Source: an uncultured Bacteroides sp.
GTDB lineage: Bacteria; Bacillota; Clostridia; Lachnospirales; Lachnospiraceae
DNA: 32,000 bases
Assembly: GCA_945913015.1 (NCBI GenBank)
Contig: CAMECH010000001.1
Location: 135,287-167,286, forward strand
Direction: 5' to 3'
A program made the position numbers and the translations under genes. Below are positions 1 to 14,708 of this stretch, in pieces; positions within the stretch are counted from its first letter, which is position 1, and every line of letters starts with the position of its first letter. Below the pieces are notes generated by a model. It saw nothing but the letters and a program-made list of their open reading frames with translations. It was not told where the DNA came from and did not search any database.

Positions 1-1757
1 TCCTCTATCTTTTTCCAGCTTCCGCCTGTGATATCCGCAATTGATTCTCCGTGTGTTCTAAGTATAAAATACACATTTTCCTTATAATTCTCTATGTGTA
101 CCTTAATACTGTTGTCTTCTCTCTTTTCGGTGTAATCGGCTGCCAGAAAATGCCTTACCCTGCTGTCAGTTTCCGAAACCGTATTCTTATCAAATGCCGA
201 ATAACAGTCTAAGTATTCAGCAAGATTTGTTGCAAAATCCTCATATTTTCTGCCCCACTCAGGTGAATCCTCCTCAGGGAACAGTACATCTGTCATATCA
301 AGCGTAATCGACGAATATCCAAGCGCCGTCTGAAGGCTTCTGTTCTTAAAATCTTTCATAAATGTGTAGTCAAGTCCGTCATTGGTAGTCCTGAGTTCCA
401 TTACCTGATTGGAGAGGTAAGAAAACATCTGCGTATCCTTCTCATAATCAAAAACGACTGTCCGCACATCCTTTAAAAGTGCCGTTTTTAGCAGGCTCAT
501 CGTTTTTTCACGACTGTTTTCATTCACATACATTGACATAAATTTATAGTTCGGAACCGTTCTGTAAAATGTATCATAGTCCGCAACAATTTTCTGTCTT
601 AAGGTCGCATCCTGAAGATTATATGCGGCCCACCCCGCTTCATCACCATTCTCTCTGAACAGTTTGAAATAGTATTCAATCTCCTCCTGCTTTGGATAAC
701 TCTCATCCTGATAGTTATTCTGCGGAGTTACCATATATGTCATCTTCGCATTAAAATGATTGATAAGGCCTGATAAATTAGGCCATATTATATCCCTTAA
801 TGTTTCTGTGGAGGAACGGCTGTAACGCTTTTTCATCTGTTCATCATTTTCCGAAGAAAATGACGGATAGTTAATTGCTATTATGTTCTGTGAATTGACA
901 ACCGGATATATATCATAATCTTTGGCTTCATACATCATTGCCGTATAAATCCCAAGCCCCGTATTATCCTGTCCGTAGTCTCCGTTAATTGCAAATACAC
1001 AGGTTTTATCAGTCCGGTATCTCCATATAATGCACGGCTGTAATTCATTATTAACCTCGCCGTATCTGCCTTCATCAAGCACGCCTGCCATATACACCTT
1101 TGTACCGGATTTCAGAATATACCACGGCACCTCAAGCTGCATATCCTGATACTTTTCTTCTTTTTCATTGTTGGCAATATACCATTTTTCACCGCCGACA
1201 AGAAACCCTCCAAACAGCTTTATTCCCTTAAGCTGCGCTTTATTCTGCTTTACAGATGATATTCCGAGAATATTGCGCAGCTCCTCACTGGCTTCAATTA
1301 CAGACGGCTCGGGCAGACTGCAGAAAATCATTGTAACACCGCTGTTCGCAATTCCTGAAAGCGCAGAAGCTGACCTTGAAAAATCAATCTGATTGGAGTC
1401 AACAAATACCACCTCCGGCATATGCTTTGTGTCAGGAGTGTATTCCTCCGGTGAGCCCACCGAAAGCATATTCATCTTTGAATATGTGCACCACTGCTGC
1501 ACTGTCCTTTTTGCCGGGCTTGCCGTATCGGCAGCATTTCCGATAAATACTGCATAGCCGTCCTCAGACGCCGCAATTTTATCACTTTCCGATACAGGCC
1601 TTACAACTGAAGTCTGCGTAAGACTTCTGTCCGAGGACGCATACACATTTGTATCATAATCATTATAAAAATCCTTTATAAACTCTGAAAACTGAAATAA
1701 GAACAGCACCAGCAGCATAATCAGAGTTATCACAAAAAAATTTCTTCTTGAAACCAT
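1..1757 (-). CDS. DUF2194-like membrane-anchored protein, possibly an analogue of the PelA deacetylase domain; the C-terminal end runs off the window
   Basis: The minus-strand frame is open from ATG 1757 to the window edge. It is absent from the ORF track because it has no stop in the window, and no competing minus ORF is listed there. GAGGA lies 6 nt upstream of the ATG. The translation starts MVSRRNFFVITLIMLLVLFLF, a single N-terminal TM anchor. It begins 14 nt after the stop of the upstream gene. The family call is from memory of sequence character only. Confidence 0.55.
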   Translation of the reverse strand, partial: MVSRRNFFVITLIMLLVLFLFQFSEFIKDFYNDYDTNVYASSDRSLTQTSVVRPVSESDKIAASEDGYAVFIGNAADTASPAKRTVQQWCTYSKMNMLSVGSPEEYTPDTKHMPEVVFVDSNQIDFSRSASALSGIANSGVTMIFCSLPEPSVIEASEELRNILGISSVKQNKAQLKGIKLFGGFLVGGEKWYIANNEKEEKYQDMQLEVPWYILKSGTKVYMAGVLDEGRYGEVNNELQPCIIWRYRTDKTCVFAINGDYGQDNTGLGIYTAMMYEAKDYDIYPVVNSQNIIAINYPSFSSENDEQMKKRYSRSSTETLRDIIWPNLSGLINHFNAKMTYMVTPQNNYQDESYPKQEEIEYYFKLFRENGDEAGWAAYNLQDATLRQKIVADYDTFYRTVPNYKFMSMYVNENSREKTMSLLKTALLKDVRTVVFDYEKDTQMFSYLSNQVMELRTTNDGLDYTFMKDFKNRSLQTALGYSSITLDMTDVLFPEEDSPEWGRKYEDFATNLAEYLDCYSAFDKNTVSETDSRVRHFLAADYTEKREDNSIKVHIENYKENVYFILRTHGESIADITGGSWKKIE

Positions 1758-1771
1758 AGCCAATCCTCTAC

Positions 1772-4096
1772 TTAATCGATAGCGAGATTAAACAGACTGT
1801 ACATATTCTGCTCAAGCCTGTAACAGACAAATTCATCATCCTCATAATAAACCTTCATTTCATTAGGATACAGCTTCATAAATTTCTGCGCCCAGTAATA
1901 CATTTTTGACATTACAATCCACCGGTTTTCGCCGAAATATACGCTTATACCGCTTCCAATAGGAGTGTCCTTTCCGGCACCTGCCAATGATACCATTTGA
2001 CCGCTGCCCTCATACGGGTGAAGATAATCAATAGGTCTTTTCTCTATGTAAAAATATACATATTTTGTATCAATATAAATGCTTTTATTATCTCTCTTAC
2101 TTTCGTTAAGATGTATAAATGTAATCGGCTCATAGTGATATCCGTGCCCGTAAATCATACGAAGTTCATCGTTGGCGGAGACTATCGTCCATGTATTGTC
2201 TTCGTTATCCTTAATAATATTGGTAAGGCATGTTATTGCTCCGTTGGTTTCAAGTCTGCCTGTGCTAAACGGCCTTCTTATAAGATTCATCTGAAAACCG
2301 AATATTACCACTCCGACAACTGCCGCCAGTGACAATAAATTCATTATCCATTCCTTCTTTGTTATAAGGAACCATACCGAACACAGCGCATCAACTGCAA
2401 CACATGCAATAACCGTAAGCAGGTACGCAAAATAAATTCTTGAACGGTTCGCATCCATCAATTCAGGAAGTCCAAGCATTTTTGCAGAAACAAGTACCAG
2501 CATGCACAGTGTCATTACTGCGACAGATATAAGTATTGCTCCGTAGTCCGTCTGTTTTAACACAAACATCAGCAACCCCATTACCGCTGCAAATGCCACT
2601 ACCGCAAGCAGTGCCGGCAGGAAAAATTCCATGTCAAATCTAAGAACATTCAGCTTAAGACCTGCCTTAATACTGTTATATGCACCATAAAGCTTCTTAG
2701 ATAACGAAAGCTTTTTATTTTGTGTACTGCTGCCGGACTTACTGCCTGCCGCCTGCTGCGTACTTTGCGTAGAAGCACTGTCCGCCTGCCCGATACTGCC
2801 GTCAGGTGCCGTTCCTGTCTGTTTTTCATCCTGCACTGTCTTCTTTTCTTCGCTCTGACTGTTTACATCCGCTGAGGTTGTAGAATCTCCGGAACCTTTT
2901 CCCTGCATAACATTCATGCCCCAGTTAAGCGAGCCCTGCAATGGCGTTCCGGTTGCAAATGCAACACCCATCGGAAGCACACCTATCATCACAGCCGCAA
3001 TTACCGCAACCAGTATCCTGCCGAGATATTTTATATTAAAGAACCGGAAAATAAATCCTATTGCTATTGCCACGCAGAAAATTCCGGCAATCATCGTATC
3101 ATAAAAATGCACTGCAATCGTCATTCCGAAACTTAATGCATACCCTGTAAGGTACCATGAAGAATCCGACATACCCTTAATTTTTTCAGGCAGTGCCAGC
3201 TCTTTTTTTCTTGTCTCAAAAAATCTGATTGCAAAATATATGGCAGGCAGTATAAAGACCATACCAAATTCCTGCGGGAGCGTTCCCAGATATCTTCTTG
3301 TGCATTCAAGGTTGAAAATGTCATATCCCGCATACACAAGACACCCTGCATATGCCGCATACCTCGATTTGCAGATTCCTTTTATAAATGCAAGCAGCAT
3401 AAAAAAAATATATATCATCTGCGTAAATCCGAATACACGAAGCAGCACATATGTATCAATTCCAAACACTTCGTAAAAATAGTATATAATGCAGTGAAAT
3501 CCAAACGGATAAACTCCCGCCACATAAATATCTCCGTCGCACATGGCATTTATCCAGTAATTGTGAACCGGAAGGTCTGAAAATGAGTATCCGTAATATG
3601 AAACATAATTATCGCCATAAACCCACAAAAGACATACAAAAAGCAGCACAAATGCCAGAGATTCAAACAGATTATGTCTTACGAAGCCTGCAAATTTACG
3701 GATAAGACGCTTTAAGCCTGCTACGGCTGCACGAATCAGTTTCTTTGTAAATGTCTTCCGGCCCATTATTCCGAAGACAGCCTTATGAAGAACCTGAAGC
3801 CAGCGCAGTATGTGGTCTGCCATATTCCCGTCATAATTGCGTATATACACAATAAGTCCGGGTATAACCGTAAATAAAATAAGCGTTATGCGATTTGATA
3901 TATGCAGAAGCTGGAGCAGAAAAACAATGTGCATAATAAAGAAATTGCCTATTACAAAGTACACCATAAACTGCTCAAGCGGTCTTTTGTCTGCTACCTT
4001 TTTATGAAAAATAAGTGCCGGCAAAGCTATGGTAACAAGCGAGTACAATGCAAATATCCCTGCAATCTGCATAATTGTAAGCATTGTCATTGACAT
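1772..4096 (-). CDS. Large polytopic membrane protein of unknown function, about 14 predicted TM helices plus a C-terminal extracytoplasmic domain; possibly GT-C/YfhO-like
   Basis: This is the 776-aa ORF 1772..4102. The codon at 4102 is TTG, only 3 nt from GAAGG. ATG at 4096 sits 9 nt from GAAGG and is the more likely start. Hydrophobic segments run through residues 1-400 and 470-600. An Asp/aromatic-rich loop (DNYVSYYGYSFSDLPVHNYWINAMCDGDIY) follows TM4. The last ~170 aa are soluble. Confidence 0.7.
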   Translation of the reverse strand: MSMTMLTIMQIAGIFALYSLVTIALPALIFHKKVADKRPLEQFMVYFVIGNFFIMHIVFLLQLLHISNRITLILFTVIPGLIVYIRNYDGNMADHILRWLQVLHKAVFGIMGRKTFTKKLIRAAVAGLKRLIRKFAGFVRHNLFESLAFVLLFVCLLWVYGDNYVSYYGYSFSDLPVHNYWINAMCDGDIYVAGVYPFGFHCIIYYFYEVFGIDTYVLLRVFGFTQMIYIFFMLLAFIKGICKSRYAAYAGCLVYAGYDIFNLECTRRYLGTLPQEFGMVFILPAIYFAIRFFETRKKELALPEKIKGMSDSSWYLTGYALSFGMTIAVHFYDTMIAGIFCVAIAIGFIFRFFNIKYLGRILVAVIAAVMIGVLPMGVAFATGTPLQGSLNWGMNVMQGKGSGDSTTSADVNSQSEEKKTVQDEKQTGTAPDGSIGQADSASTQSTQQAAGSKSGSSTQNKKLSLSKKLYGAYNSIKAGLKLNVLRFDMEFFLPALLAVVAFAAVMGLLMFVLKQTDYGAILISVAVMTLCMLVLVSAKMLGLPELMDANRSRIYFAYLLTVIACVAVDALCSVWFLITKKEWIMNLLSLAAVVGVVIFGFQMNLIRRPFSTGRLETNGAITCLTNIIKDNEDNTWTIVSANDELRMIYGHGYHYEPITFIHLNESKRDNKSIYIDTKYVYFYIEKRPIDYLHPYEGSGQMVSLAGAGKDTPIGSGISVYFGENRWIVMSKMYYWAQKFMKLYPNEMKVYYEDDEFVCYRLEQNMYSLFNLAID
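2712..2905 (-). other. Ser/Thr/Gln/Gly-rich low-complexity loop inside the 776-aa membrane protein
   Basis: The translation is QGKGSGDSTTSADVNSQSEEKKTVQDEKQTGTAPDGSIGQADSASTQSTQQAAGSKSGSSTQNKK. It lies between TM blocks and has no hydrophobic stretch. Confidence 0.8.
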
Positions 4097-4110
4097 ATGC
4101 AAAAACCTTC

Positions 4111-5046
4111 CTATTCATTAAAAATACGTATTATTTCCAGTGTCTCTTTATCAATCACAACCTGCGATTTTCTAAGTTCATCCATTGCCACAAAAAATTT
4201 TTCTCTGTCTTTAAGCTTGTAATAAAGCTTGAGTCTGCATTTGTAAGGTGCCAGAATACCCGGACACTCTTTCATGATTATTTCACACCATTTTTCTGCT
4301 TTCTCATAATCATCGATATATATAAGGTGCATGCATATCCATTCATAGTACTCATCTTTCATGCCTGCCTTGTCAGCCGTATACAGAATATTTCCGGTTT
4401 CCTCAAGCATAAGGACATATTTCTTCTGTTCCATCGGCACAAGTACATGCTGCTCAAGCACCGTATTCATATATTCCAGTTCCATACAGCAGTATTTTGA
4501 AAGATTCTTATCCCTTTTCTGGATTTCAATGTATATTTTCTGAGCTGTCTCTCTGAAACTTGCAAGTTCATCCCTCAATGCCGTTGCCGCATAGTGCGAT
4601 GTCTCTGAATCCTGACTGTTTAATGCAAGAGAAATTGATGCAAGCGATTTTTTGATATCCCCGCGCAGCACATTAAGCATAAGCTCCCTTAAGCTCTTAT
4701 AATCGCTGACCGCAATAGCCTCTTCAAACGAGGTTATGTTAAGCTCCCTGCTTTCATCTGCCCTGTCATATGTCTCTGTTCTCTCTTTGCTGAAAATAAC
4801 ATCTGTCAGGTCAACCTCTTTATGAAAGAATACTTTATTAAACAGCAGTGCCAGCACGTAACCTGCCATACTCACAACAGGGCACATTATAAACACAACA
4901 AACAGGATAATATACCGCCTTTTTCCACCGGGTATATATTTTTTCAGACCCGTCACCGGAACAACCGCTACTCCCCATATAAGAAATATAAGCGCAAATA
5001 TCAGGTTAATTCCGAGAACAGCAATAATTATTCTTTCTGAACTCAT
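4111..5046 (-). CDS. PelE-like protein with two N-terminal TM helices and a TPR-like helical-repeat cytoplasmic domain
   Basis: The ORF is 311 aa. Its ATG (5046) overlaps the upstream stop as ATGA, which suggests translational coupling. The N-terminus has two TM segments, IIIAVLGINLIFALIFLIWGVAVVPV and YIILFVVFIMCPVVSMAGYVLALLF. The C-terminal half is helical-repeat-like (YYEWICMHLIYIDDYEKAEKWCEIIMKECPG...). Size and architecture match PelE. Confidence 0.5.
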   Translation of the reverse strand: MSSERIIIAVLGINLIFALIFLIWGVAVVPVTGLKKYIPGGKRRYIILFVVFIMCPVVSMAGYVLALLFNKVFFHKEVDLTDVIFSKERTETYDRADESRELNITSFEEAIAVSDYKSLRELMLNVLRGDIKKSLASISLALNSQDSETSHYAATALRDELASFRETAQKIYIEIQKRDKNLSKYCCMELEYMNTVLEQHVLVPMEQKKYVLMLEETGNILYTADKAGMKDEYYEWICMHLIYIDDYEKAEKWCEIIMKECPGILAPYKCRLKLYYKLKDREKFFVAMDELRKSQVVIDKETLEIIRIFNE

Positions 5047-7202
5047 TCTCCCATCTCCTTAGGAATCCGATAGCTGTATCCTGCCTCCGCAATTCTTTTC
5101 TCAACATAGCCGGTCGCTTCATTGTCCGTGCTTACAAGCATTACACACAGCTTTCCGTCCCCCATGTCACCCATATAATCTGTGTTTCTTATAACCTTTT
5201 CAATGTTCATGCCTGCCTTTTCAATACTCTCGCCCGCCATGTCAATTTCAAGAAATGAGCATTCCGCCAGCCCGCGTTTTCTTGCGCTGTTAAATGCCTT
5301 AACAAGCGAGCCAAACGCTTCTTTTTCCAGTACATGGGTTCCTGCAATATACCTTTGATTTTCAAGTATATCCATATAACGGTTCGCACGCACAACTGAA
5401 TTCTGTGTGAGAGAACCTATAATTTTCAGTCTGTTTGCCATACTGAGATTCATGCGTTCAAACGGAATATCCCACAGCATGACGATAAGATTTATCGTCC
5501 CCTCCGGACGTATTGCCAGCGCCATCATAGGAAGATCCGGATTCATCTTTCTGTTGATAAAAACGCGGTCCTGCTCAAATTCAGTGTACATTTCGCCATA
5601 CTTTTTATACTCAATTGAATTGCCAAGCTTCCTTGCCTCTTTGGAAGTAAATGAAATAAGTCTCGCAAAATTTTCATTGGATACCGTATAAATTGCCACA
5701 TCACGGCTTTCCATAAGCCTCGACACAACATCAGCCGCATAGAACAGTACTTCCTCCGGCTCATATTTATCAAGGGACGAAGTAATCTCGTAAATTTTCC
5801 CCATGCTGTCGCTCTGGCTCACAATCTGCCTTTCCATTTCATTCTTTAACCGCACGTTCGTTTTATTAATATCTTCAATATCTCTCAGCCTGTGCTTAAG
5901 ATAATCAATCTCATCATCCTTATCCTTGCGGATAAGTACAAGCTGATCCCTTAAGTAACCTACGGCAAGCCCAAGAATCAAAAGCTGTGCAATCCATACA
6001 TATGTATTGTAGTCAATAGCAACCTCAAATCCGCTCTTTGTATACATTTCCCTGAAGCAGAAGCCTGCAACCGACAGAATTGCCGAAAATGTTGCTTGCT
6101 GCTGTCCGAATATAATGGCAAAAAGCAGTACGTATATAAGATAACTGTCCAGCTTTCCGAAAAACTGGCTTCCCACCGCCCTGTTGTTTATCATGAAAAA
6201 CGGAATAAAACAAATCATATTCTCAATAAACGGAATAAATGTGATAAGAATTGTTTTTATTGAGAGCATAATCTGCATAAATTTATTCTGCTCATGCTTT
6301 TTTTCACGTATAAATTTTTTGGAATTTTTCTTTATTGCTTTAACGGTTTCTTCAACGCAGTCTTCCGTCCTGTAAAATACAGCAAACGGAAATTCCTCCG
6401 AATAATCGTGCACATCAAGTTCTTCAATCCAGATTACCGAATTGTCACTTGCATATCTTACAGGAACTCTGAAGCCAAATTCCCTGTTAATTATGTCAAT
6501 GGCATCTCCGCTTCGCATTTCGTTTCTGCATGTCAGTGTATATATATTGTATCTGTGCTTCTCAGCAGTAAAAATATTGTACATAAACTGAACTGCATCA
6601 GGAAGCGCCAGCAGCGAGATATCCATCCCGTTACAGTTGATTTCGTTTTTATTGAGCGCTTCAATGCACATTCTCGCACATTCACCATACGCCTCCGAAA
6701 TATTTGCAGGGGCATAGCTTATATTCTCAGCGCGCACAACAACTATATCAAGTCCTGTTGCAATCCTGTAATTAACACATGTTATCTCACCCTGACGTAC
6801 TGTTCTTGCTTTTATAATCTCACCATCGTTATCTTCCTGCACTTCTGCCGCATTGTACACCTCCTCCGAGGATAAATATACAAAACGTCCTTTGCCAAGC
6901 CTTGAATACGCCGCAAGCACATTGCTTAATCCCGTCGAAAACGAAAGCTGTGCATCCTGCTCTCCCTGCCAGTCAAATGAGGTATCAAACACTCCCGTAA
7001 AAACTGTCAAATCCGGAGAAACACTCTCGAACACATCCTTGATGCAGTTGTTGCCATAATCAAAAATATACTTTTCATAGACATGCCTGAAATGTGTTTT
7101 TCTGCTGCTCATAAGGACATAAACCGTATGCCCTTCCTTGTTCAGCTTATTGACGATTTCACTTGTTATTCGGTTTGCATCACCAATTAATAATATTTTC
7201 AC
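5043..7202 (-). CDS. PelD-like c-di-GMP receptor candidate: degenerate SDR/epimerase-like domain, 4 TM helices, GAF domain and degenerate GGDEF domain
   Basis: The ORF is 719 aa with a GTG start at 7202 and GGAG 6 nt upstream. The N-terminus MKILLIGDANRITSEIV... has a Rossmann beta1 but the GxxGxxG motif is lost, and LSSEEVY is epimerase-like. Four TM helices lie at about residues 305-420, followed by a coiled coil and a GAF-like region. The C-terminal part reads RNTD-YMGDM-GDGKL. That is an RxxD I-site exactly 5 aa before a degenerate GGDEF position (verified at nt 5148..5189). Confidence 0.6.
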   Translation of the reverse strand: MKILLIGDANRITSEIVNKLNKEGHTVYVLMSSRKTHFRHVYEKYIFDYGNNCIKDVFESVSPDLTVFTGVFDTSFDWQGEQDAQLSFSTGLSNVLAAYSRLGKGRFVYLSSEEVYNAAEVQEDNDGEIIKARTVRQGEITCVNYRIATGLDIVVVRAENISYAPANISEAYGECARMCIEALNKNEINCNGMDISLLALPDAVQFMYNIFTAEKHRYNIYTLTCRNEMRSGDAIDIINREFGFRVPVRYASDNSVIWIEELDVHDYSEEFPFAVFYRTEDCVEETVKAIKKNSKKFIREKKHEQNKFMQIMLSIKTILITFIPFIENMICFIPFFMINNRAVGSQFFGKLDSYLIYVLLFAIIFGQQQATFSAILSVAGFCFREMYTKSGFEVAIDYNTYVWIAQLLILGLAVGYLRDQLVLIRKDKDDEIDYLKHRLRDIEDINKTNVRLKNEMERQIVSQSDSMGKIYEITSSLDKYEPEEVLFYAADVVSRLMESRDVAIYTVSNENFARLISFTSKEARKLGNSIEYKKYGEMYTEFEQDRVFINRKMNPDLPMMALAIRPEGTINLIVMLWDIPFERMNLSMANRLKIIGSLTQNSVVRANRYMDILENQRYIAGTHVLEKEAFGSLVKAFNSARKRGLAECSFLEIDMAGESIEKAGMNIEKVIRNTDYMGDMGDGKLCVMLVSTDNEATGYVEKRIAEAGYSYRIPKEMGE

Positions 7203-7231
7203 TTTTAGCTCCAGCCTGTTATATATTTTTA

Positions 7232-7510
7232 TTATAAATCAACGCCCCGTGACTTTAGTTCATTTATAAACGCATCGACGTCCCTGACAGCCTCTTCATG
7301 CTGTATGCCATATTCTTTTGCAAGCATATCCGCAAGTTCATCCGATGTCATATCACCTGCAATCCCTTCCCATATCATTGCTCCGCACTCATTTACAGGT
7401 ATCGGAGGCATATATGCATCCTGCTTTTGTGCACATTTTACAATCCATTTGCTGCCTGCTGCCTGCCTTACAACATATTCTGTTCCCGACCGCATAACTC
7501 CACTCTCCAT
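7232..7510 (-). CDS. PqqD-family protein (RiPP recognition element-like winged helix)
   Basis: The ORF is 92 aa. The segment PIPVNECGAMIWEGIAGDMTSDELADMLAKEYGIQHEEAVRDVDAFINELKSRGV fits the PqqD pattern (LN-x-a-iW-x-l-dG-x-t-x-eia-x-l-x-eY-v-x-e-x-a-x-Dv-x-fl-x-L-x-x-G). An alternative start is Met6 at 7495, preceded by GGAGAGTGGAG. It ends 29 nt upstream of the PelD-like gene on the same strand. Confidence 0.7.
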   Translation of the reverse strand: MESGVMRSGTEYVVRQAAGSKWIVKCAQKQDAYMPPIPVNECGAMIWEGIAGDMTSDELADMLAKEYGIQHEEAVRDVDAFINELKSRGVDL

Positions 7511-7517
7511 TCTGACG

Positions 7518-7557
7518 CAGCTGTCACAGCTGTAGGCACAAAGGTAATCTTTGCACC
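7518..7557 (-). other. Two adjacent hairpins in the 5' leader of the PqqD-like gene
   Basis: On the minus strand the first hairpin is GGUGCAAAG-auuac-CUUUGUGCC, a 9-bp stem with two central G-U pairs (7535..7557). The second is CAGCUG-uga-CAGCUG (7518..7532). No U-tract follows, so this is not an intrinsic terminator. Confidence 0.4.
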
Positions 7558-7579
7558 CTCCACTAAACTATAGCTATTT

Positions 7580-7588
7580 ATTATATCA
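7580..7588 (-). promoter_or_regulatory. Candidate extended -10 promoter (TGATATAAT) for the PqqD-like/Pel-like operon
   Basis: The minus strand reads ...ctaTGaTATAATaaatag.... The -35 is only weak (TGTTTT at 17 nt). Confidence 0.3.
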
Positions 7589-7627
7589 TAGAATATGCCT
7601 AAAAAACACTTACTTTTGCCTGTGTAC

Positions 7628-7656
7628 TTGAAAAAAAAATCATCATAAGGTAATAT
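7628..7656 (+). promoter_or_regulatory. Candidate sigma-A promoter for tadA (TTGAAA-17-TAATAT)
   Basis: TTGAAA lies at 7628..7633, followed by a 17-nt spacer and TAATAT at 7651..7656. This is 38 nt upstream of the tadA ATG. Confidence 0.45.
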
Positions 7657-7693
7657 CATTATCAGCAATAAATTCAGGAGAATTATAAATAAT

Positions 7694-8167
7694 ATGCACA
7701 TACAACTTACCGCTGACGAAAAATATATGAAAGAAGCATTAAAACAGGCACGCAAAGCTTACAGGCTCAATGAATCGCCTATAGGCTGCGTAATTGTATA
7801 CAATGATAAAATTATCGCACGCGGTTACAACCGCCGCAACACCGACAAAACCACGCTCGGACATGCCGAGATTACTGCCATACGCCGCGCAAGCAAAATT
7901 CTTGGTGACTGGAGGCTTGAGAACTGTACTATTTATATTACGCTTGAACCTTGTCAGATGTGCGCCGGAGCAATTGTGCAGGCACGCATTCCAAAAGTCG
8001 TAATCGGTGCAATGAATCCAAAAGCCGGATGTGCCGGTTCAATCCTCAATCTTCTCGAAATACCGCAGTTTAATCACCGGTGCGAAGTAACACGCGGTAT
8101 TCTTTCCGAAGAATGTTCAGAACTAATGTCGTCGTTTTTTTGTGCACTCCGCAAAAAAAATAAATAA
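7694..8167 (+). CDS. tadA: tRNA adenosine(34) deaminase
   Basis: The ORF is 157 aa. It carries the CDA-fold zinc motifs HAEITAI and LEPCQMCAGA, and its size is typical of TadA. Confidence 0.93.
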   Translation: MHIQLTADEKYMKEALKQARKAYRLNESPIGCVIVYNDKIIARGYNRRNTDKTTLGHAEITAIRRASKILGDWRLENCTIYITLEPCQMCAGAIVQARIPKVVIGAMNPKAGCAGSILNLLEIPQFNHRCEVTRGILSEECSELMSSFFCALRKKNK

Positions 8168-8226
8168 ATTTCTGATAACAAAAAATGACGCCCGTAAGCC
8201 TTTTTGCCTACTGACGCCATTTTCTA

Positions 8227-9462
8227 TTATCCAATCACACCGTTAAGCGCAGCCTTTGCTGCTGTTGCAGGTGAACCGAGGAAGATTTCAACTTTGGATG
8301 AGCCCATTCTTCCCAAAAAGTTTCTGTTATTTGTCGCAAGAATTTTCTCGCCGTCTGCCATAATTCCGCATGCACGTCCACAGCACAGGCCGCAGCCCGG
8401 TTGTGTTATAATTGCACCTGCCTCTGCAAGGTCCTTAATATAGCCTGCCGCAATTGCTTCCCTGTAAATGCTTCTGCTTGCAGGTGTAACAATCAGCCTC
8501 ATATAATCGGCAATCTTCTTACCGCGGAGAATATCTGCCGCAACCTTCAAATCCTCAAGTCGTCCATTAGTACATGAGCCAATAAACACCTGGTCAATCT
8601 TTGTACCCTTAAGCTCACTTACAGGATGTATATTATCAACCTGCGAAGGGCATGCAAGCACAGGAACAAGCTGCTCTGCGTCATATTCCATGACACGGCA
8701 GTATTCTGCGTCATCATCTGCCTTAAGCCACTTAACATCATCATAATCCACTTTTGAATACTCTGCTGTCTTTTTATCCGGCGCAAACAGTGCCGCTTTC
8801 GCTCCCGCCTCAATTGCCATATTTGCAATAGTCATTCTTGAGGCTACGCTCATTTCATCAACAGCACTTCCCGAAAATTCAAGCACCCTGTATGTGGCTC
8901 CGTCAGAACGCAAATCTCCGATAAGTCTGAGGATAATGTCCTTTGCGTATACGCCCTCCGGAAGATGTCCGTTGATTACAACCTTGATTGTCTCCGGCAC
9001 CTTAATCCACATTTCGCCTGTTCCGAGAACCGCTGCCATTTCCGTATATCCTATTCCCGAAGAAAAGCATCCGACACAACCGTATGTCGTCGTGTGTGAA
9101 TCCGTACCAAATACAATATTTCCCGGCTTTGCATATCCCATTTCAGGCATAAGCTGGTGGCATATACCGTCGGCTCTGTGGAAATGTGTCAGTCCCTGCT
9201 CCTTAACAAATGCATCTCCTATCTGAAAATGTCTTACATCCTCAACCGCACTCGTAGGAACAAGATGGTCATAAATAAGTACAACCTTATCTGCATCCCA
9301 AACCTTTGTAAATCCCATTTCACGGAACTTTTCCACAACAAACGGAATAAATATATCATGAATCATTACTCTGTCAACATTAACAGTCACAATTGCCCCC
9401 GGTCTGACATCTGTCTTTCCGGTATTTTTCATTACTATTTTTTCAATTAATGTATGTCCCAT
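8227..9462 (-). CDS. Aconitase-family dehydratase large subunit (3-isopropylmalate dehydratase LeuC / homoaconitase HacA type), copy 2
   Basis: The ORF is 411 aa with an ATG at 9462 and GAGAGG upstream. Motifs are GTDSHTTTYG, GSCTNGR and CGLCCG (Fe-S cysteines). Length is of the short archaeal-type. Confidence 0.85.
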   Translation of the reverse strand: MGHTLIEKIVMKNTGKTDVRPGAIVTVNVDRVMIHDIFIPFVVEKFREMGFTKVWDADKVVLIYDHLVPTSAVEDVRHFQIGDAFVKEQGLTHFHRADGICHQLMPEMGYAKPGNIVFGTDSHTTTYGCVGCFSSGIGYTEMAAVLGTGEMWIKVPETIKVVINGHLPEGVYAKDIILRLIGDLRSDGATYRVLEFSGSAVDEMSVASRMTIANMAIEAGAKAALFAPDKKTAEYSKVDYDDVKWLKADDDAEYCRVMEYDAEQLVPVLACPSQVDNIHPVSELKGTKIDQVFIGSCTNGRLEDLKVAADILRGKKIADYMRLIVTPASRSIYREAIAAGYIKDLAEAGAIITQPGCGLCCGRACGIMADGEKILATNNRNFLGRMGSSKVEIFLGSPATAAKAALNGVIG

Positions 9463-9485
9463 TTGATAATCCTCTCAACCTCGAT

Positions 9486-9977
9486 TTATATGATTCCGTT
9501 GCGTTTCTGCATGGCTTTTACAAGTCCGCCTGCATTAAGAATTTCCATCAGATTGTCCGGAAGCGGCTGTATCGGATACTCCCTGCCGTTAAATACAATC
9601 TTGTCATTCATTATTACATCAATCGTATCCCCTTCTTTAACCGCATCCGGAATCTCGCTGTTCTCAATAAGCAGAAGCCCGTTGTTAATTGAGTTGCGGA
9701 AAAAGATTCTCGCAAATGATTTTGCAATCACACATCGCACATTGAGATGCTTAATAATTTCCGGTGCCTGCTCTCTTGAAGAGCCGCAGCCGAAATTCTT
9801 GCCTGCAACAATAATATCTCCATCCCCTATCTGTGCCGCAAGTTCAGGGCGCAGCGGAGAAAATGCATATTTCTTCATATCGTCAACAGTCTTTAATGCA
9901 AGATATTCCGTAGGTATAATGATGTCAGTATCAATATCGTCACCAAGCACCCAGACCTTTCCTGTAAACTTATCCAT
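9486..9977 (-). CDS. Aconitase-family dehydratase small subunit (LeuD/HacB type), copy 2
   Basis: The ORF is 163 aa. Motifs are GDDIDTDIIIPTEYL, GKNFGCGSSREQAP and AKSFARIFFRNSINNGL. Confidence 0.85.
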   Translation of the reverse strand: MDKFTGKVWVLGDDIDTDIIIPTEYLALKTVDDMKKYAFSPLRPELAAQIGDGDIIVAGKNFGCGSSREQAPEIIKHLNVRCVIAKSFARIFFRNSINNGLLLIENSEIPDAVKEGDTIDVIMNDKIVFNGREYPIQPLPDNLMEILNAGGLVKAMQKRNGII

Positions 9978-10016
9978 ATATTTACTACCTTTCTTTGTTT
10001 TATTTAGACCATGCCG

Positions 10017-11261
10017 TTAGACCGTACCGCAGATTTTGCCTGCAATTGCGGATGCCGTTACAGTGGCTGCCGAACCGAGATATACCTTTGAGTTTTTATG
10101 TCCCGCACGTCCCTTGAAATTGCGCGTTCCTGTTGATATAAGTACTTCTCCGTCTCCTATTACTCCCTGACAGCTTCCCCAGCATACGCTGCAGTTTGCA
10201 TTCATAACCATGGCTCCTGCTTCCATGAATATGTCAATCAGCCCCTCATCAAGTGCCTGAAGATACACATTATTTGATGCAGGTGCAACAATAAAGCGCA
10301 CATCCGGATGTACCTTTTTACCCTTAAGAATAGATGCTGCCACTCTCAGATCATCAATACGTCCATTATTACATGAGCCAAGAAATGCTTCATCAATCTT
10401 CACATCACCAACCTCAGAAAGCGAAATTACATCATCAACAAAGTCAGGTCTTGCAACTACCGGCTCAATTTTACTTAAATCATACTCATAAACCTTTAAA
10501 AACTTTGCGTCTTCATCGCTTACATACATATTGTCAGCATTACGCCCATGCTCTTTTATAAACTGTTCAACCTTCTCGTCAGGCTCAACAATGCCTGTCT
10601 TTGCACCTGCCTCAACCGCAAGATTGCAGAGTACAAAACGGTCATTGACACTTAAGTTGTGCGCGCCCTCTCCCGCAAACTCCATAACTTTATAATTGGC
10701 GCCGTTAGCTCCGATATCACCGATGATTGTAAGAATCAGGTCTCTTGGATATACACCCTCTCTCAACTTGCCTTTCAGATTAAATCTGAGTGTCTCCGGG
10801 ACCATAACCCATGACTTTCCGGTAACCATCGCGTAAAGGAAATCAGTACAGCCTACACCCGTACCAAATGCGCCAAGCGCACCATATGAACAGGTATGTG
10901 AGTCAGCTCCGAAAATGAGCTGTCCCGGCTCAACGAATTCCTCAAACATAATCTGGTGGCAGACACCTTTGCCCTCAAAAAATTTAATTCCGTTAGCTTT
11001 TGCAAACTCACGCATTTTCTTATGAACTGCCGCAGTTTTCGGGTTTTCTGCCGGAACATTGTGGTCAACTATAAATACGAGCTTATCCTTGTCTGCAATC
11101 CTCGGATTCTTAAGCTTATTGTTATACATATCAATCGTAAGATGTGTTGTTCCGTCATTGCTCATAAGATAATCAAGCTCAACCGTATGTATCTGTCCGG
11201 GCTTTACCTCACTGACACCTGCTGCCCTCGCAATAATCTTTTCTGCTATTGTCATTCCCAT
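10017..11261 (-). CDS. Aconitase-family dehydratase large subunit (LeuC/HacA type), copy 1
   Basis: The track ORF 10017..11288 begins at a TTG. ATG 11261 (MGMTIAEKII) has GGAGG 6 nt upstream and is preferred. Motifs are GADSHTCSYG, GSCNNGR and CSVCWG. Confidence 0.85.
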   Translation of the reverse strand: MGMTIAEKIIARAAGVSEVKPGQIHTVELDYLMSNDGTTHLTIDMYNNKLKNPRIADKDKLVFIVDHNVPAENPKTAAVHKKMREFAKANGIKFFEGKGVCHQIMFEEFVEPGQLIFGADSHTCSYGALGAFGTGVGCTDFLYAMVTGKSWVMVPETLRFNLKGKLREGVYPRDLILTIIGDIGANGANYKVMEFAGEGAHNLSVNDRFVLCNLAVEAGAKTGIVEPDEKVEQFIKEHGRNADNMYVSDEDAKFLKVYEYDLSKIEPVVARPDFVDDVISLSEVGDVKIDEAFLGSCNNGRIDDLRVAASILKGKKVHPDVRFIVAPASNNVYLQALDEGLIDIFMEAGAMVMNANCSVCWGSCQGVIGDGEVLISTGTRNFKGRAGHKNSKVYLGSAATVTASAIAGKICGTV

Positions 11262-11323
11262 GATTTTCCTCCATCCTGCTCTTTTCAATAAACCTGCATC
11301 ACTCTTTGCTCAGTTAAGCAGCA

Positions 11324-11794
11324 TTACTCTTTATTAAGTGAAGCAATCAGTCCGCCTGCATTAAGGATATTCTGCATATATTCAGGCAGCTTTGTACATG
11401 TAAATTCTTTTCCGCCGGCACTTACTATTCCCTGTGTCAGGTCAACCTCAACCTCATCACCTGCATTTACATTTTCATGGACATTTTCGCACACAAGTAC
11501 CGGAAGGCCTATATTAATCGAATTTCTGTAAAATATTCTTGCAAATGATTTCGCAACCACCGCTTTAATCCCGAGCGCCTTTAAAACGCTTGGAGCCTGC
11601 TCTCTTGAAGATCCGCATCCAAAGTTATCTCCCGCAACAATTATATCGCCTTCTTTAACACCCGATGCAAAATCAGCATCAAGTGACTCAAACGCATGTG
11701 ACTTCATTTCATCGATTGTAGGCAGCAGAAGATACTGCGATGCTATAATCTGGTCTGTATCGACATCATTATTAAACTTAAAAACACGACTCAT
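11324..11794 (-). CDS. Aconitase-family dehydratase small subunit (LeuD/HacB type), copy 1
   Basis: The ORF is 156 aa. Motifs are NNDVDTDQIIASQYL, GDNFGCGSSREQAP and AKSFARIFYRNSINIGL. Confidence 0.85.
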   Translation of the reverse strand: MSRVFKFNNDVDTDQIIASQYLLLPTIDEMKSHAFESLDADFASGVKEGDIIVAGDNFGCGSSREQAPSVLKALGIKAVVAKSFARIFYRNSINIGLPVLVCENVHENVNAGDEVEVDLTQGIVSAGGKEFTCTKLPEYMQNILNAGGLIASLNKE

Positions 11795-11835
11795 AAACTA
11801 ACTGTAACCTCCCTGTATAAATTACCAACTTATTC

Positions 11836-11865
11836 ATTATACAGTTTAGGGCATGCTTTTGTAAA
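11836..11865 (-). promoter_or_regulatory. Candidate sigma-A promoter (TTTACA-18-TATAAT) for the four-gene dehydratase operon
   Basis: The minus strand reads TTTACAaaagcatgccctaaactgTATAAT. It lies about 42 nt upstream of ATG 11794. I could not see a leader, attenuator or T-box between the promoter and the start. Confidence 0.45.
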
Positions 11866-11940
11866 CAATAACCAAATTAAATCATTAAAATTTTATTGAT
11901 TGCAAATTTAAATATTGTATGATAGAATACAAATAAGTAA

Positions 11941-11969
11941 TTAAAGTTCTTGTTAAAATTTTCTATAAT
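11941..11969 (+). promoter_or_regulatory. Candidate promoter with a perfect TATAAT -10 upstream of the GNAT gene
   Basis: TTAAAG lies at 11941..11946, followed by a 17-nt spacer and TATAAT at 11964..11969. The -35 is weak. TTGATT-17-ATGATA around 11897..11925 is an alternative. Confidence 0.3.
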
Positions 11970-12196
11970 TCTTTAAGGCCTTTGGCCGTCCTGAGCTTGT
12001 AAGCCTACTGCAGTACATGAAGAATACAAGGCTTGACAATCCCGCGATAATAGTTCAGGATGAACGTATAGTTAAGCTTGACAAGGTAGTTGAGGAAGTG
12101 AAGCAGTCAGAAGAATGGGAGGCTGTGAAGATGACTTTTTTAAATACCGGTCGGAATAGATTGGAGCAGTATAGAAATGAATTCTTTAAAATTTGA
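11969..12196 (+). pseudogene. C-terminal remnant of an Rpn-family / PD-(D/E)XK nuclease 'putative transposase'-like gene
   Basis: The open frame reads FFKAFGRPELVSLLQYMKNTRLDNPAIIVQDERIVKLDKVVEEVKQSEEWEAVKMTFLNTGRNRLEQYRNEFFKI*. The QYMKNT..LDN...VKQSEEWEAV string resembles, from memory, the C-terminal region of these ~300-aa proteins common in Lachnospiraceae. No N-terminal nuclease part is present. The longest Met-initiated piece is 59 aa (12017..12196), and it overlaps the GNAT start. Confidence 0.4.
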
Positions 12197-12728
12197 ATAC
12201 AGAGAAAACGGAATTATACTGCGTATACTTTCTGCTGACGATGCGGAAAAGGTACTGCAGTTTTATGAAAAAAATAAAAATACATTTGGTTCTTATGAAA
12301 CAGAAAAGCCCGAAGGCTTCTACACAACGGAATTTCAGGAGACTCTGCTGCACGCAGAAATGGAAAGCTTTCTGAAGGGAGTACACGTCCGCTACTTTTT
12401 GTTTGACGAGCGCTTTCCTGATGACATCATCGGAAGCATTTCATTTTTTAATATAAGACACGGCCATTTTGAGCAGTGTACAACCGGGTACAAGATTGAT
12501 GAGGAATACCGCCGGCTTGGTTACGGCACAAAAATGCTTTCTCTTGCGACGCGCATTATCACGCATGATTTCGGAATTCACCGCATAGAAGCTTACATCA
12601 TGCCTTCAAACATACCTTCAGTTCATCTTGCCGAGCGATGCGGATATGAAGCTGAAGGCATTGCCAAAGGCTATGTGCGCCTGCATGGCAAATGGACAGA
12701 CCATCTGCGATATGTCTATATTGTCTGA
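12177..12728 (+). CDS. GNAT-family N-acetyltransferase (RimJ/RimL-like)
   Basis: The ORF is 183 aa. It has an acetyl-CoA motif-A-like segment (YRRLGYGTKMLSLA) and a typical RimJ-like C-terminus (HRIEAYIMPSNIPSVHLAERCGYEAEG...HGKWTDH). Confidence 0.85.
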   Translation: MNSLKFEYRENGIILRILSADDAEKVLQFYEKNKNTFGSYETEKPEGFYTTEFQETLLHAEMESFLKGVHVRYFLFDERFPDDIIGSISFFNIRHGHFEQCTTGYKIDEEYRRLGYGTKMLSLATRIITHDFGIHRIEAYIMPSNIPSVHLAERCGYEAEGIAKGYVRLHGKWTDHLRYVYIV

Positions 12729-13750
12729 TACCAGTATCCGAAATAAGGATTGCGGCAGTCGCTTCTGTGGCTTCTTTTAAAGTTATTAAAGTTAAACATA
12801 GATGCCATAAAGCGTTCTTTGTTATTGTATACTCCCGGGACTCCGACAAACAGTGCATCCGGGTCATTATGCACCCTTGCAACCAGAAGATGACGGAATG
12901 TAAAATACCCATGCATGAGAAAGCTGTTCTCTGCAACCTGTAACGTATTTTTTTCCTGCATTGTTCCAAATGCACCGTCAATCTCCGGCTGCTGCCGCCT
13001 TGCATCAAAAATCTGCTGCAGCTGCTCCGGTGTGACCTCCATACAATCATAGAAATCATCATCATCAAATGCATCCACAAAATTTCCATCTATTTTTTCA
13101 AATGTTTCTGATACTGTAAGTATCTCAGGTTTACTTTGTAATGGAACCAGACTGATTTCTTCAGCGCTGACCACCGCTTTCTCTTCCTTTTCTGCCGTAG
13201 CATCTGCCTCATTTACCGTTACTTCAACCCTATTTTCGTCTGTATCCTTGACTGTATCCTCAACTTCATCTGCCGCCTTGACTGTATCCTCAGCTTTATC
13301 TGCCTCTTCGGATGTATGCCCTGTCGAGGTACGCCTTTTTGCAGCTCCATATCTCATGTCATTTATGTCGGCGTTCTCATTTTTCCACAATACCGCAGCT
13401 GTTGAAGCCCGGCTGTCGGGTACAATGGCAATCCCCATGACATCATTCCAGTCAAATCCGCTTCCTGAAATATTTTCGGCAACGACCTGACATTCTGTCT
13501 TTCCAAAGCCATTGACAATGCTTACATCACAAAGTCTTACTGCCCCTGTAAGCCCGTTTTCTTCAGGCACCAGTGCATATACGCCGTCTTTTGCCGTTCC
13601 ATGTGAGTAAAGTCCTCTTACATTTATTGAAATGTTAACATTTTTGCTCATCATCCAGCCGGTCTGCCGGCAAAACTTTACGAATCCGCAGGAATGGCTC
13701 ATATCAGGCTGTCCTGCTATGTATTCATGCAAATAAAATAAATCACCCAT
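12716..13750 (-). CDS. Hypothetical protein with two conserved-looking end domains joined by an acidic repeat linker
   Basis: The ORF is 344 aa with an ATG at 13750. The N-domain reads YLHEYIAGQPDMSHSCGFVKFCRQ.... The C-domain ends ...VGVPGVYNNKERFMASMFNFNNFKRSHRSDCRNPYFGYWYQTI. The middle is Glu/Asp/Lys/Thr/Val-rich. I do not recognise a function. Confidence 0.7.
   Translation of the reverse strand: MGDLFYLHEYIAGQPDMSHSCGFVKFCRQTGWMMSKNVNISINVRGLYSHGTAKDGVYALVPEENGLTGAVRLCDVSIVNGFGKTECQVVAENISGSGFDWNDVMGIAIVPDSRASTAAVLWKNENADINDMRYGAAKRRTSTGHTSEEADKAEDTVKAADEVEDTVKDTDENRVEVTVNEADATAEKEEKAVVSAEEISLVPLQSKPEILTVSETFEKIDGNFVDAFDDDDFYDCMEVTPEQLQQIFDARRQQPEIDGAFGTMQEKNTLQVAENSFLMHGYFTFRHLLVARVHNDPDALFVGVPGVYNNKERFMASMFNFNNFKRSHRSDCRNPYFGYWYQTI
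13246..13305. repeat. 2 x 30-nt imperfect tandem repeat inside the acidic linker of the 344-aa ORF
   Basis: Unit 1 is ccttgactgtatcctcaacttcatctgccg (13246..13275). Unit 2 is ccttgactgtatcctcagctttatctgcct (13276..13305). Together they encode ...KAEDTVKAADEVEDTVKD.... Confidence 0.85.
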
Positions 13751-13809
13751 ATCATAGTCCCATCTACAATTACTATTGCAGTATATTCATGATATGAGTG
13801 ATTTATGAT

Positions 13810-14697: not shown

Positions 14698-14708
14698 TAA
14701 TTATCCTT

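Follow-up and report, generated by a model that had tools for sequence, protein, structure and literature searches.

A Pel-like exopolysaccharide operon of Lachnospiraceae with a predicted GT-C glycosylation module and a PelA deacetylase homologue whose active site is substituted

A stretch of 32,000 nucleotides (nt) from a Lachnospiraceae metagenome contig deposited as uncultured Bacteroides sp. (assembly GCA_945913015.1, contig CAMECH010000001.1, positions 135,287 to 167,286 of the forward strand; hereafter the window) carries at its left end, between positions 1 and 7510, five tightly packed minus-strand open reading frames (ORFs) belonging to a Pel-like exopolysaccharide (EPS) locus. An ORF map placed all five genes where an earlier note on this DNA had put them, and recomputed intergenic distances of 29, -4 (an ATGA overlap), 8 or 14, and 14 nt confirmed their order and spacing. 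In the direction of transcription, the genes encode a small PqqD/RRE-family protein of 87 amino acids (aa; 7232..7495), located at the head of the operon and 29 nt upstream of the next gene; a PelD-like protein of 719 aa (5043..7202, GTG start); a PelE-like protein of 311 aa (4111..5046), whose start overlaps the pelD stop codon by 4 nt; a predicted GT-C-fold membrane glycosyltransferase of 774 aa, here called M774 (1772..4096, ATG start); and a DUF2194 protein homologous to the deacetylase PelA_DA (1..1757), which is cut by the window edge with 27 codons missing. Use of an alternative TTG start at 4102 (1772-4102) lengthens the GT-C protein to 776 aa. The PqqD-like ORF can be extended to an ATG at 7510 (7232-7510); the ATG at 7495 is preceded by a GGAG ribosome-binding site and was the start chosen by gene callers in six metagenome contigs.

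The genes past the left edge were obtained from related contigs; loci are referred to by L numbers. Six metagenome contigs encode the 311-aa protein with identical sequence, while an exact-sequence look-up of the 776-/774-aa protein returned no match, the window strain differing by a few residues. The longest of the six contigs (L001) is 99.66% identical to window positions 1-15047 and thus represents the same species. In L001 the DUF2194 protein is complete at 612 aa, and six further genes follow it, so that the full order reads PqqD-like, PelD, PelE, GT-C, DUF2194, PelF, PelG, DUF2304, GT4, GT2, DUF4874/DUF4832. A locus from the B. cereus group, L087, served as comparator for the B. cereus-type pel system; it was recovered through a 187-residue fragment printed by HMMER and then aligned directly, and its layout is GH114, then PelD, PelE, DUF2194, PelF and PelG, then GalE.

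PelF (467 aa; L001 15153-16556) scores 390.2 bits against the NCBIfam equivalog NF038011, for which the cut-off is 100, carries the N-terminal DUF3492 domain (PF11997, 1.5e-79), and is 36% identical to the B. cereus-type PelF of L087 (E 2e-109) and 62-74% identical across the related loci compared. PelG (480 aa; L001 16567-18009) matches PF16933 at 2.9e-133 over profile positions 1-452 of 452 and aligns with the PelG of L087 over its full length (25% identity, BLASTP E 1e-32); it is the only MOP-like protein of the cluster, and a core Pel component. On these profile scores both are bona fide members of their families, and the glycosyltransferase and exporter genes that had been predicted beyond the left edge are thus present in the 99.66%-identical contig. 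Downstream of PelG, L001 encodes a DUF2304 protein of 126 aa (PF10066, 1.5e-11), a GT4 glycosyltransferase of 401 aa that is matched best by PglJ and PglH, both alpha-1,4-GalNAc transferases, a PpgS-/DPMS-like GT2 protein of 260 aa and, after the GT2 gene, a protein with Pfam domains DUF4874 and DUF4832 that found no match in a PDB sequence search.

The 719-aa protein is composed of a degenerate SDR domain, about four transmembrane helices, a coiled helix, a GAF domain and a truncated, degenerate GGDEF domain, the architecture from which an assignment to PelD had been proposed. The N-terminal SDR/epimerase domain was recognized by Pfam (2e-7), and a family profile of 22 sequences matched the extended SDR structure 8rdg in the PDB (1.4e-10). 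Since the columns of the catalytic Tyr and Lys are occupied by R/K and L/I/V in the family, and the glycine motif of this protein reads GDANRIT, not GxxGxxG, the domain is degenerate and, judged by these substitutions, inactive. The GGDEF domain is faint by sequence (Pfam 0.03), with no match of the Pfam PelD_GGDEF model to the 719-aa protein at E up to 1, and was confirmed by fold. An AlphaFold2 (AF2) model of residues 310-719, with a predicted local distance difference test (pLDDT) score of 77.7, was compared to the PDB with Foldseek: the best match was PelD of P. aeruginosa (4etz_B, E 3.5e-7), followed by the PelD structures 4dmz and 4dn0 and then by GAF and GGDEF proteins. An hhalign comparison of the family with the B. 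cereus-type PelD of L087 gave a probability of 92.7% (E 4e-7, 361 columns), in agreement with the structural match.

A putative cyclic-di-GMP (c-di-GMP) binding I-site, R672-N-T-D675 (5178..5189, minus strand), lies 5 residues before the sequence GDGKL (5148-5162, minus strand) that takes the place of GGDEF. Neither R672 nor D675 varies among the 22 aligned sequences, an RxxD followed five residues on by a degenerate xDGxL is found in 72/72 PelD-like homologues, and hhalign pairs the motif with the sequence 'RDID' of the B. cereus-type PelD. The motif gives good reason to propose gating by c-di-GMP through this predicted PelD I-site. The 311-aa protein, for which no Pfam or NCBIfam family was found, has transmembrane segments at residues 6-24 and 46-64 in a hydropathy scan, followed by a helical repeat domain; its family aligns with the B. 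cereus-type PelE of L087 at 84.9% probability (E 6.4e-6, 185 columns), with the motif DSETSHYAA (window 4585-4611) placed on DPETVHYAA. The assignments of both proteins, to PelD and to PelE, therefore stand as the earlier note had made them.

Between the pelE and DUF2194 genes, the earlier note had seen a 776-aa polytopic membrane protein of no stated function, a description that holds and can now be refined. M774 comprises about 12 or more transmembrane helices, a disordered linker and a C-terminal alpha/beta domain. Its sequence gave no Pfam, NCBIfam or PDB (profile search) match, and sub-threshold matches to DUF6541 appeared in 3/34 of the family members scanned. In contrast to the sequence, the AF2 model (pLDDT 79.6, predicted template-modelling score 0.80) was informative: the nine best PDB fold matches reported by Foldseek are all GT-C enzymes (probabilities 0.97-1.00), among them DPY19 (1.9e-5), PglB (1e-3), AftA (2e-3) and AglB, and the next match has an E of about 0.5. 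On the modelled fold, the protein is a GT-C-fold glycosyltransferase of a family without a Pfam model, and the family is large: one search gave more than 1161 matches, and a second one 1134 clusters at 50% identity. The label 'amino acid ABC transporter permease', which some sources attach to this family, is contradicted by the fold and was rejected.

A conserved motif, YSFSDLPVHNYWIN, occupies residues 170-183 of M774 (3548..3589, minus strand) in an acidic loop after the fourth transmembrane helix; within it Y170, S173, D174, H178, N179, W181 and N183 are invariant among 24 sequences. The loop (residues 158-216) contains no Lys or Arg and six Asp or Glu residues, and because it succeeds a strongly basic loop of 50 residues with 11 Lys or Arg, it is predicted to be extracytoplasmic. 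D174 is a candidate for the catalytic residue, a role suggested by its conservation and position. The linker (residues 401-462; window 2711-2896, minus strand) is a disordered stretch of about 60 residues rich in Ser, Thr, Gln and Lys, with pLDDT below 50, which separates two bundles of transmembrane helices. Among homologues this linker differs widely in length, and the proteins as a whole measure between 740 and more than 1100 aa.

The donors of GT-C enzymes are sugars linked to polyprenyl phosphate, and two further genes of the cluster point to the supply of such a substrate. The best NCBIfam match of the GT2 protein is the polyprenyl-P-GalNAc synthase PpgS (2.7e-22, 79 bits against an equivalog cut-off of 370), and in the PDB sequence search it matched dolichol-P-mannose synthase best (5mlz, 2.6e-8), followed by ArnC (1.8e-4); both of the best matches, PpgS and dolichol-P-mannose synthase, are polyprenyl-phosphate sugar synthases. 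The DUF2304 protein belongs to the GacJ/Rv3632 family. In group A Streptococcus, the DUF2304 protein GacJ activates the GT2 enzyme GacI, and the GT-C enzyme GacL uses GlcNAc-P-Und to decorate polyrhamnose (10.1101/180810); PpgS, Rv3632 and Rv3779 of mycobacteria follow the same scheme and add GalN to arabinogalactan (PMC9671496). The locus described here resembles both systems in combining a putative GT2 polyprenyl-phosphate sugar synthase, a small DUF2304 membrane protein as its putative activator and a GT-C-fold transferase, and by this analogy M774, the PpgS/GacI-like GT2 and the DUF2304 protein are predicted to form a lipid-linked-sugar glycosylation module, which probably decorates a polymer outside the cell. 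Unlike the Gac and mycobacterial modules, which belong to wall-polysaccharide loci, it lies within a synthase-dependent Pel-type operon. In further contrast to GacI/GacJ/GacL, no GacK-type flippase was found here, and the GT4 gene separates the DUF2304 and GT2 genes.

The last operon gene in the window encodes a member of DUF2194 (PF09960, 2.4e-20, profile positions 51-576 of 582) that has kept its N-terminal anchor, a transmembrane segment at residues 9-27. In Bacillus, contact with PelG has been proposed for the corresponding anchor of PelA_DA. The case for homology with the B. cereus enzyme BcPelA_DA (CAZy family CE26) is built on membership of the same Pfam family and on collinearity; a structure and a functional dissection of this enzyme appeared in 2026 (PMC13254593). 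In that enzyme D262/D263 and H350/H354 bind the metal, D262 acts as the base and H488 as the acid, and R458 activates the base; H350, H354 and H488 are needed for activity, which is abolished by their mutation, and D262 and R458 are needed for Pel production (PMC13254593). More generally, deacetylation by PelA is required for Pel production in P. aeruginosa and B. cereus, the two systems that have been studied in depth (PMC13254593). The orthologue in L087 carries the BcPelA_DA residues at exactly the published numbers and was used for numbering, and the active site was mapped with hhalign and with an independent MAFFT alignment of 69 homologues, which gave the same equivalences.

At the positions of D262/D263 the present protein has I295/N296 (window 858-878), at H350/H354 it has A377/L381 (615-641), at R458 it has T457 (375-398), and at H488 it has D487 (288-308). 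The same holds for its Lachnospiraceae-type relatives: D262 is replaced by V, A or I, D263 by N in 56/69, H350 by S in 60/69, R458 by A, I, V or T, and H488 by D or N in 69/69, while the H354 position is variable. All six tested or assigned catalytic positions are thus substituted in 69/69 homologues. Independently of the alignment to BcPelA_DA, the family has no conserved histidine, no His column exceeding 71% among the 69 homologues; E369, E373 and D393 are invariant acidic residues. The solved PelA_DA was not found in a search with the single sequence, a profile of the full family reached 9zau at an E of only 0.023, and a sub-profile of the catalytic core gave no match to the solved protein. 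As far as the alignments can tell, the DUF2194 protein is without the residues that PelA_DA of B. cereus needs for de-N-acetylation, and a non-catalytic, polymer-binding role appears plausible for it. The earlier designation as a putative pelA(DA) analogue therefore stands with respect to homology and falls with respect to the catalytic residues. In the comparator contig, the PelA_DA gene (L087:9120-10951) is split by a frameshift into ORFs of 294 and 316 aa, probably an assembly error in this metagenome contig.

The small protein encoded at the operon head matches the PqqD family at 4.5e-13 (PF05402, 49.7 bits against a cut-off of 23.4), in line with its earlier description as PqqD/RRE-like. 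All NCBIfam PqqD subfamily models scored below their cut-offs, the nearest being those of lasso-peptide chaperones, and the best PDB sequence matches are the PqqD family protein 9x8z and TfuB1. A PqqD-like ORF is found directly upstream of PelD in about 52/72 related loci, at a distance of 30 nt or less in 44/47 and with a 4-nt overlap in 11, and is thus an optional head gene. In four (L040, L058, L059 and L063) of ten inspected loci without it, a co-oriented gene is present immediately ahead of pelD, and the products of these genes have a conserved N-terminal sequence in common (L040:5802-6842, L058:2068-3270, L059:4022-5074, L063:5813-6856); the L040 copy, the one run against Pfam, is a Stealth CR1-CR3 hexose-1-phosphate transferase. 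The head position of the operon is therefore variable. In L011, a further locus lacking the small PqqD gene, a PqqD domain (Pfam 9.6e-11) forms the N-terminal part of a 490-aa protein that is encoded 3 kb upstream of the pel-like operon (L011:2373-3848, minus strand).

To place the locus in a wider context, one genome per species was scanned; 246 species possess a relative of the GT-C protein, and the 80 best loci were examined. These best 80 are almost all from Lachnospiraceae, and the genera and species among them include Roseburia, Acetatifactor, Blautia luti, Anaerobutyricum hallii, Dorea, Lachnospira, Agathobacter and Hominisplanchenecus faecis. Genes were counted over the 59 loci with enough flank: PelD, PelE and PelF are each present in 58/59, PelG in 57/59, DUF2304, GT4, GT2 and DUF4832 each in 56/59, and DUF2194 in 55/59. 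The gene order of the window is the commonest (45/59), and its recurrence in dozens of species shows that the arrangement is not due to chance; across gut Lachnospiraceae, about 60 species have these genes in synteny. Alternative orders occur as well, and in most loci the canonical contiguous order pelD-pelE-pelA(DA)-pelF-pelG is broken by the GT-C gene, which stands between pelE and DUF2194.

The GT-C gene directly precedes the DUF2194 gene in 68/74 loci, and the two stay together even when shifted behind pelG, as in L036. The presence of the GT-C gene within the operon, together with its synteny with the pel genes, indicates that selection keeps the GT-C and pel genes together. Five loci are without a DUF2194 gene (L015, L017, L019, L027 and L030) and have the order PqqD-PelD-PelE-PelF-PelG-GT-C. 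In these five, PelF has a low-complexity C-terminal extension of 280-550 aa that ends in repeats of the type 'NNAxNxAVN' (L015:5769-8345, L017:4840-7266, L019:6246-8495, L027:5835-8348, L030:5382-8444). A DUF2194 domain fused to the long PelF was considered and rejected, as the extension is of low complexity and was matched neither by Pfam nor by a DUF2194 hidden Markov model. In L064 (6809-12457), the GT-C and DUF2194 genes form a pair beside a convergent DUF4874/DUF4832 gene, with no pelD, pelE, pelF or pelG in the 19-kb locus, which suggests that the two genes can work, or be retained, independently of the synthase. The closest species-level relatives of the window, L007 (CAMBEF010000055.1) and L008 (CAYZYS010000082.1), have GT-C proteins of 62% and 45% identity and the same tadA neighbour. 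Both were deposited as 'uncultured Bacteroides sp.' metagenome-assembled genomes, a label that is probably a binning or labelling error since their gene content is Firmicutes-like.

With B. cereus ATCC 10987 pelDEA(DA)FG (PMC7112168, PMC13254593), the locus shares co-oriented PelD, PelE, DUF2194, PelF and PelG genes, a PelD with transmembrane helices, GAF and a degenerate GGDEF with RxxD, and a DUF2194 protein with a single N-terminal transmembrane anchor. It differs from the B. cereus type by the apparently inactive SDR domain on PelD, the GT-C gene between pelE and DUF2194, the PqqD-like head gene and the downstream DUF2304, GT4, GT2 and DUF4874/DUF4832 genes, by the replacement of D262, D263, H350, H354, R458 and H488 of PelA_DA, and by the absence of the divergent GH114 and galE genes. 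A degenerate N-terminal epimerase on PelD and a glycoside hydrolase with DUF4832 contiguous with the operon are likenesses to the streptococcal and clostridial pel clusters with extended PelD (S. intermedius, PMC12345266; PMC7112168, S4 Fig). The DUF4832-bearing SIR_1591 of S. intermedius has been shown to hydrolyse Pel (PMC12345266). In clostridia, pelDEA(DA)FG was predicted by Whitfield et al. (2020), who also noted the degenerate epimerase of PelD and counted DUF4832 among the accessory genes (PMC7112168). In contrast, streptococcal PelD is without the GGDEF domain, which is kept here along with RxxD, and the streptococcal and clostridial clusters carry cotH, polyphosphate polymerase and DUF4956 genes, none of which was seen here within 10 kb; in their stead, this locus has the GT-C/GT2/DUF2304 set.

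The nearest published relatives are the pel-like loci of Roseburia hominis A2-183 and R. intestinalis M50/1, which, according to the text around S7 Fig of Whitfield et al. (PMC7112168), lie inside a larger cluster. As that text describes them, they resemble the present locus in that the pel genes of a Lachnospiraceae member are surrounded by GT1, GT2, DUF and phosphotransferase genes of a larger cluster, and Roseburia species are among the syntenic loci recovered here. They are probably of the same locus type, with gene-by-gene identity presumed from the description. The text passages on the Roseburia loci mention no GT-C protein, PqqD protein or loss of the deacetylase site (PMC7112168), and the open-access literature searched yielded no paper that mentions GT-C enzymes, PqqD proteins or degenerate deacetylases in connection with pel loci. 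The locus is thus of a known kind, Pel-like and partly catalogued, and it is its specific make-up and the mechanistic implication that are new. What had been called an uncharacterised variant system is new in composition but, with Roseburia pel-like loci drawn in 2020, at least as the accompanying text has it, not wholly so in type.

The matches to PelD, PelE, PelF and PelG support a Pel-like EPS operon with extra members, as the earlier note had read it. We consider it probable, with a confidence somewhat above even, that the five genes form the promoter-proximal part, about half, of a conserved synthase-dependent Pel-type EPS operon of 10-11 genes, typical of Lachnospiraceae, that works as follows. 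PelF would polymerise a GalNAc-type chain in the cytoplasm, and c-di-GMP bound at the PelD I-site would license synthesis and export through a PelD/E/G complex. In parallel, GT2 with its DUF2304 activator would load a sugar onto undecaprenyl phosphate and, after flipping, the GT-C enzyme would move this sugar to the emerging polymer on the outward side of the membrane. The membrane-anchored, catalytically silent DUF2194 protein may bind and guide the polymer without deacetylating it, the DUF4874/DUF4832 protein would be a Pel-type glycoside hydrolase, and the PqqD-like protein would be a non-essential partner, probably coupled to PelD. The least secure points of this scheme are the GT-C acceptor, the chemistry of the polymer and the part played by the PqqD-like protein. 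In a more specific proposal, partial de-N-acetylation by PelA, the step by which Pel becomes adhesive in the systems studied, has been replaced: a GT-C enzyme supplied by the PpgS-like GT2 and its DUF2304 activator would graft an amino-sugar or other side chain from a lipid carrier onto the nascent chain outside the membrane, DUF2194 would be a non-catalytic subunit that holds the polymer, and the PqqD-like RRE protein would regulate PelD instead of binding a peptide precursor. We put this forward only tentatively and regard it, taken as a whole, as rather unlikely.

Several observations weigh against the reading of a decorated Pel-type polymer. The Foldseek template-modelling scores for the GT-C match of M774 reach only about 0.3, a low value that stems from alignments across multiple domains; the GT2 score against PpgS lies far under the equivalog cut-off; and no flippase of the GacK/Wzx or GtrA type for the lipid-linked sugar was recognized among the 11 genes. 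The GT-C enzyme could have a different wall polymer as its acceptor. Indirect hints at a product like Pel, a partially deacetylated alpha-1,4-GalNAc polymer, come from the DUF4832 hydrolase homologue and the PglJ/PglH-like GT4. The hhalign comparison of the DUF2194 family with BcPelA_DA is collinear over 515 columns but weak (7.7%, E 0.0045), and neither DUF2194 nor PqqD is obligatory, since five loci are without the former and about 20 without the latter. For the Roseburia loci, Whitfield et al. in the text on S7 Fig called it unclear whether they function or make Pel (PMC7112168).

An ordinary pelDEA(DA)FG operon, in which DUF2194 is still an active deacetylase through other residues and the 776-aa and PqqD-like proteins are passengers, would account for the solid PelD/E/F/G homology and for the DUF2194 membership common to this protein and BcPelA_DA, and the invariant E369, E373 and D393 could in principle bind a metal. 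Six catalytic positions substituted in every homologue, the lack of a conserved histidine and a central catalytic region that alone no longer detects the solved PelA_DA make this improbable, as does a GT-C gene that is set within the operon at gaps of 8-14 nt and is syntenic with pel in practically all of the loci recovered. A second alternative, favoured by the disappearance of a deacetylase site that is essential for Pel in P. aeruginosa and B. cereus, is a non-Pel polymer of the capsule or teichoic-acid kind that uses co-opted Pel export parts and has its chain built or attached by the GT-C, GT4 and GT2 enzymes, for instance a polymer ligated to the wall or one polymerised from lipid-linked units. 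This possibility was raised by Whitfield et al. for the Roseburia loci, as far as their text on these loci goes (PMC7112168), and the extra GT4 and GT2 genes and the Stealth hexose-1-phosphate transferase at the head of some loci speak for it as well. We nevertheless judge it rather unlikely, given the equivalog-level match of PelF and its 62-74% identity across the related loci compared, the presence in the DUF4874/DUF4832 gene of the DUF4832 domain, which also occurs in an enzyme shown to hydrolyse Pel, and the PglJ/PglH matches of GT4, which fit GalNAc chemistry; moreover, the structural neighbours of the GT-C protein are transferases of single sugars or glycans and not of the Wzy or WaaL type.

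The GT-C/GT2/DUF2304 module might also glycosylate another acceptor, such as lipoteichoic acid, a wall polysaccharide or a protein, and merely be co-regulated with the EPS. Known GT2/DUF2304/GT-C systems do modify wall polymers, and in L064 the GT-C and DUF2194 pair occurs apart from pelD, pelE, pelF and pelG. In every other locus, however, the GT-C gene either separates pelE from the PelA homologue or comes immediately behind pelG, it adjoins the polymer-handling DUF2194 gene in the great majority of loci (68/74, as above), and its family was recovered almost only in pel-like contexts, so that such an acceptor seems quite improbable. The possibility that the PqqD-like gene marks the maturation of a ribosomally synthesized and post-translationally modified peptide at the operon head can draw on a PqqD match above threshold and on lasso-peptide chaperones as its nearest NCBIfam models. 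It was rejected for want of partner genes and is given hardly any credence: no radical-SAM enzyme, protease, cyclase or conserved precursor ORF was found in the operon or its flanks, the sole upstream ORF overlaps tadA and was called in 1/6 contigs, and the PqqD-like gene is translationally coupled to pelD (the gap of 30 nt or less in 44/47 loci) and absent from about 20/72 otherwise identical loci.

Pel is among the most widespread of the polysaccharides of bacterial biofilms. The type of locus described here occurs in many abundant gut commensals (Roseburia, Anaerobutyricum hallii, Blautia, Dorea, Lachnospira, Agathobacter and Acetatifactor), in which synthase, exporter and c-di-GMP receptor would have been kept, the deacetylase chemistry dropped and a lipid-linked glycosylation module gained. 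If the operon works as proposed, it would represent a new way of tailoring a synthase-dependent exopolysaccharide, assign a fold and suggest a role for a so far unannotated family of membrane proteins with about 1100 clusters, and offer a genetic handle on the surface glycans of butyrate-producing gut bacteria, with relevance to colonisation, aggregation and host immune recognition. Should the GT-C enzyme indeed stand in for deacetylation, the product would be the first synthase-dependent EPS modified by a GT-C module.

Upstream of the operon, the ORF map shows a divergent intergenic region at 7496..7693, the presumed promoter region, which separates the operon from a tadA-like deaminase gene on the plus strand (7694-8167). 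Rfam families gave no match anywhere in the window, so that no known c-di-GMP riboswitch precedes the operon. A promoter and terminator scan of the operon head region was uninformative, its simple sigma-70 search performing no better than on shuffled sequences. Immediately past the tadA-like gene, two tandem pairs of aconitase-family large and small subunits are encoded on the minus strand (8227-11794), with 411 and 163 aa in one pair and 423 and 156 aa in the other, and LeuC/LeuD-like in character. The rest of the window consists of housekeeping genes, which besides these aconitase-family pairs include MetRS, IleRS, glycogen phosphorylase and SpoIID. Among the latter, and with an M23 peptidase as a further neighbour, lies a minus-strand gene (17933-20518) for an 861-aa protein whose sole Pfam match is DUF5704 (5.8e-13).

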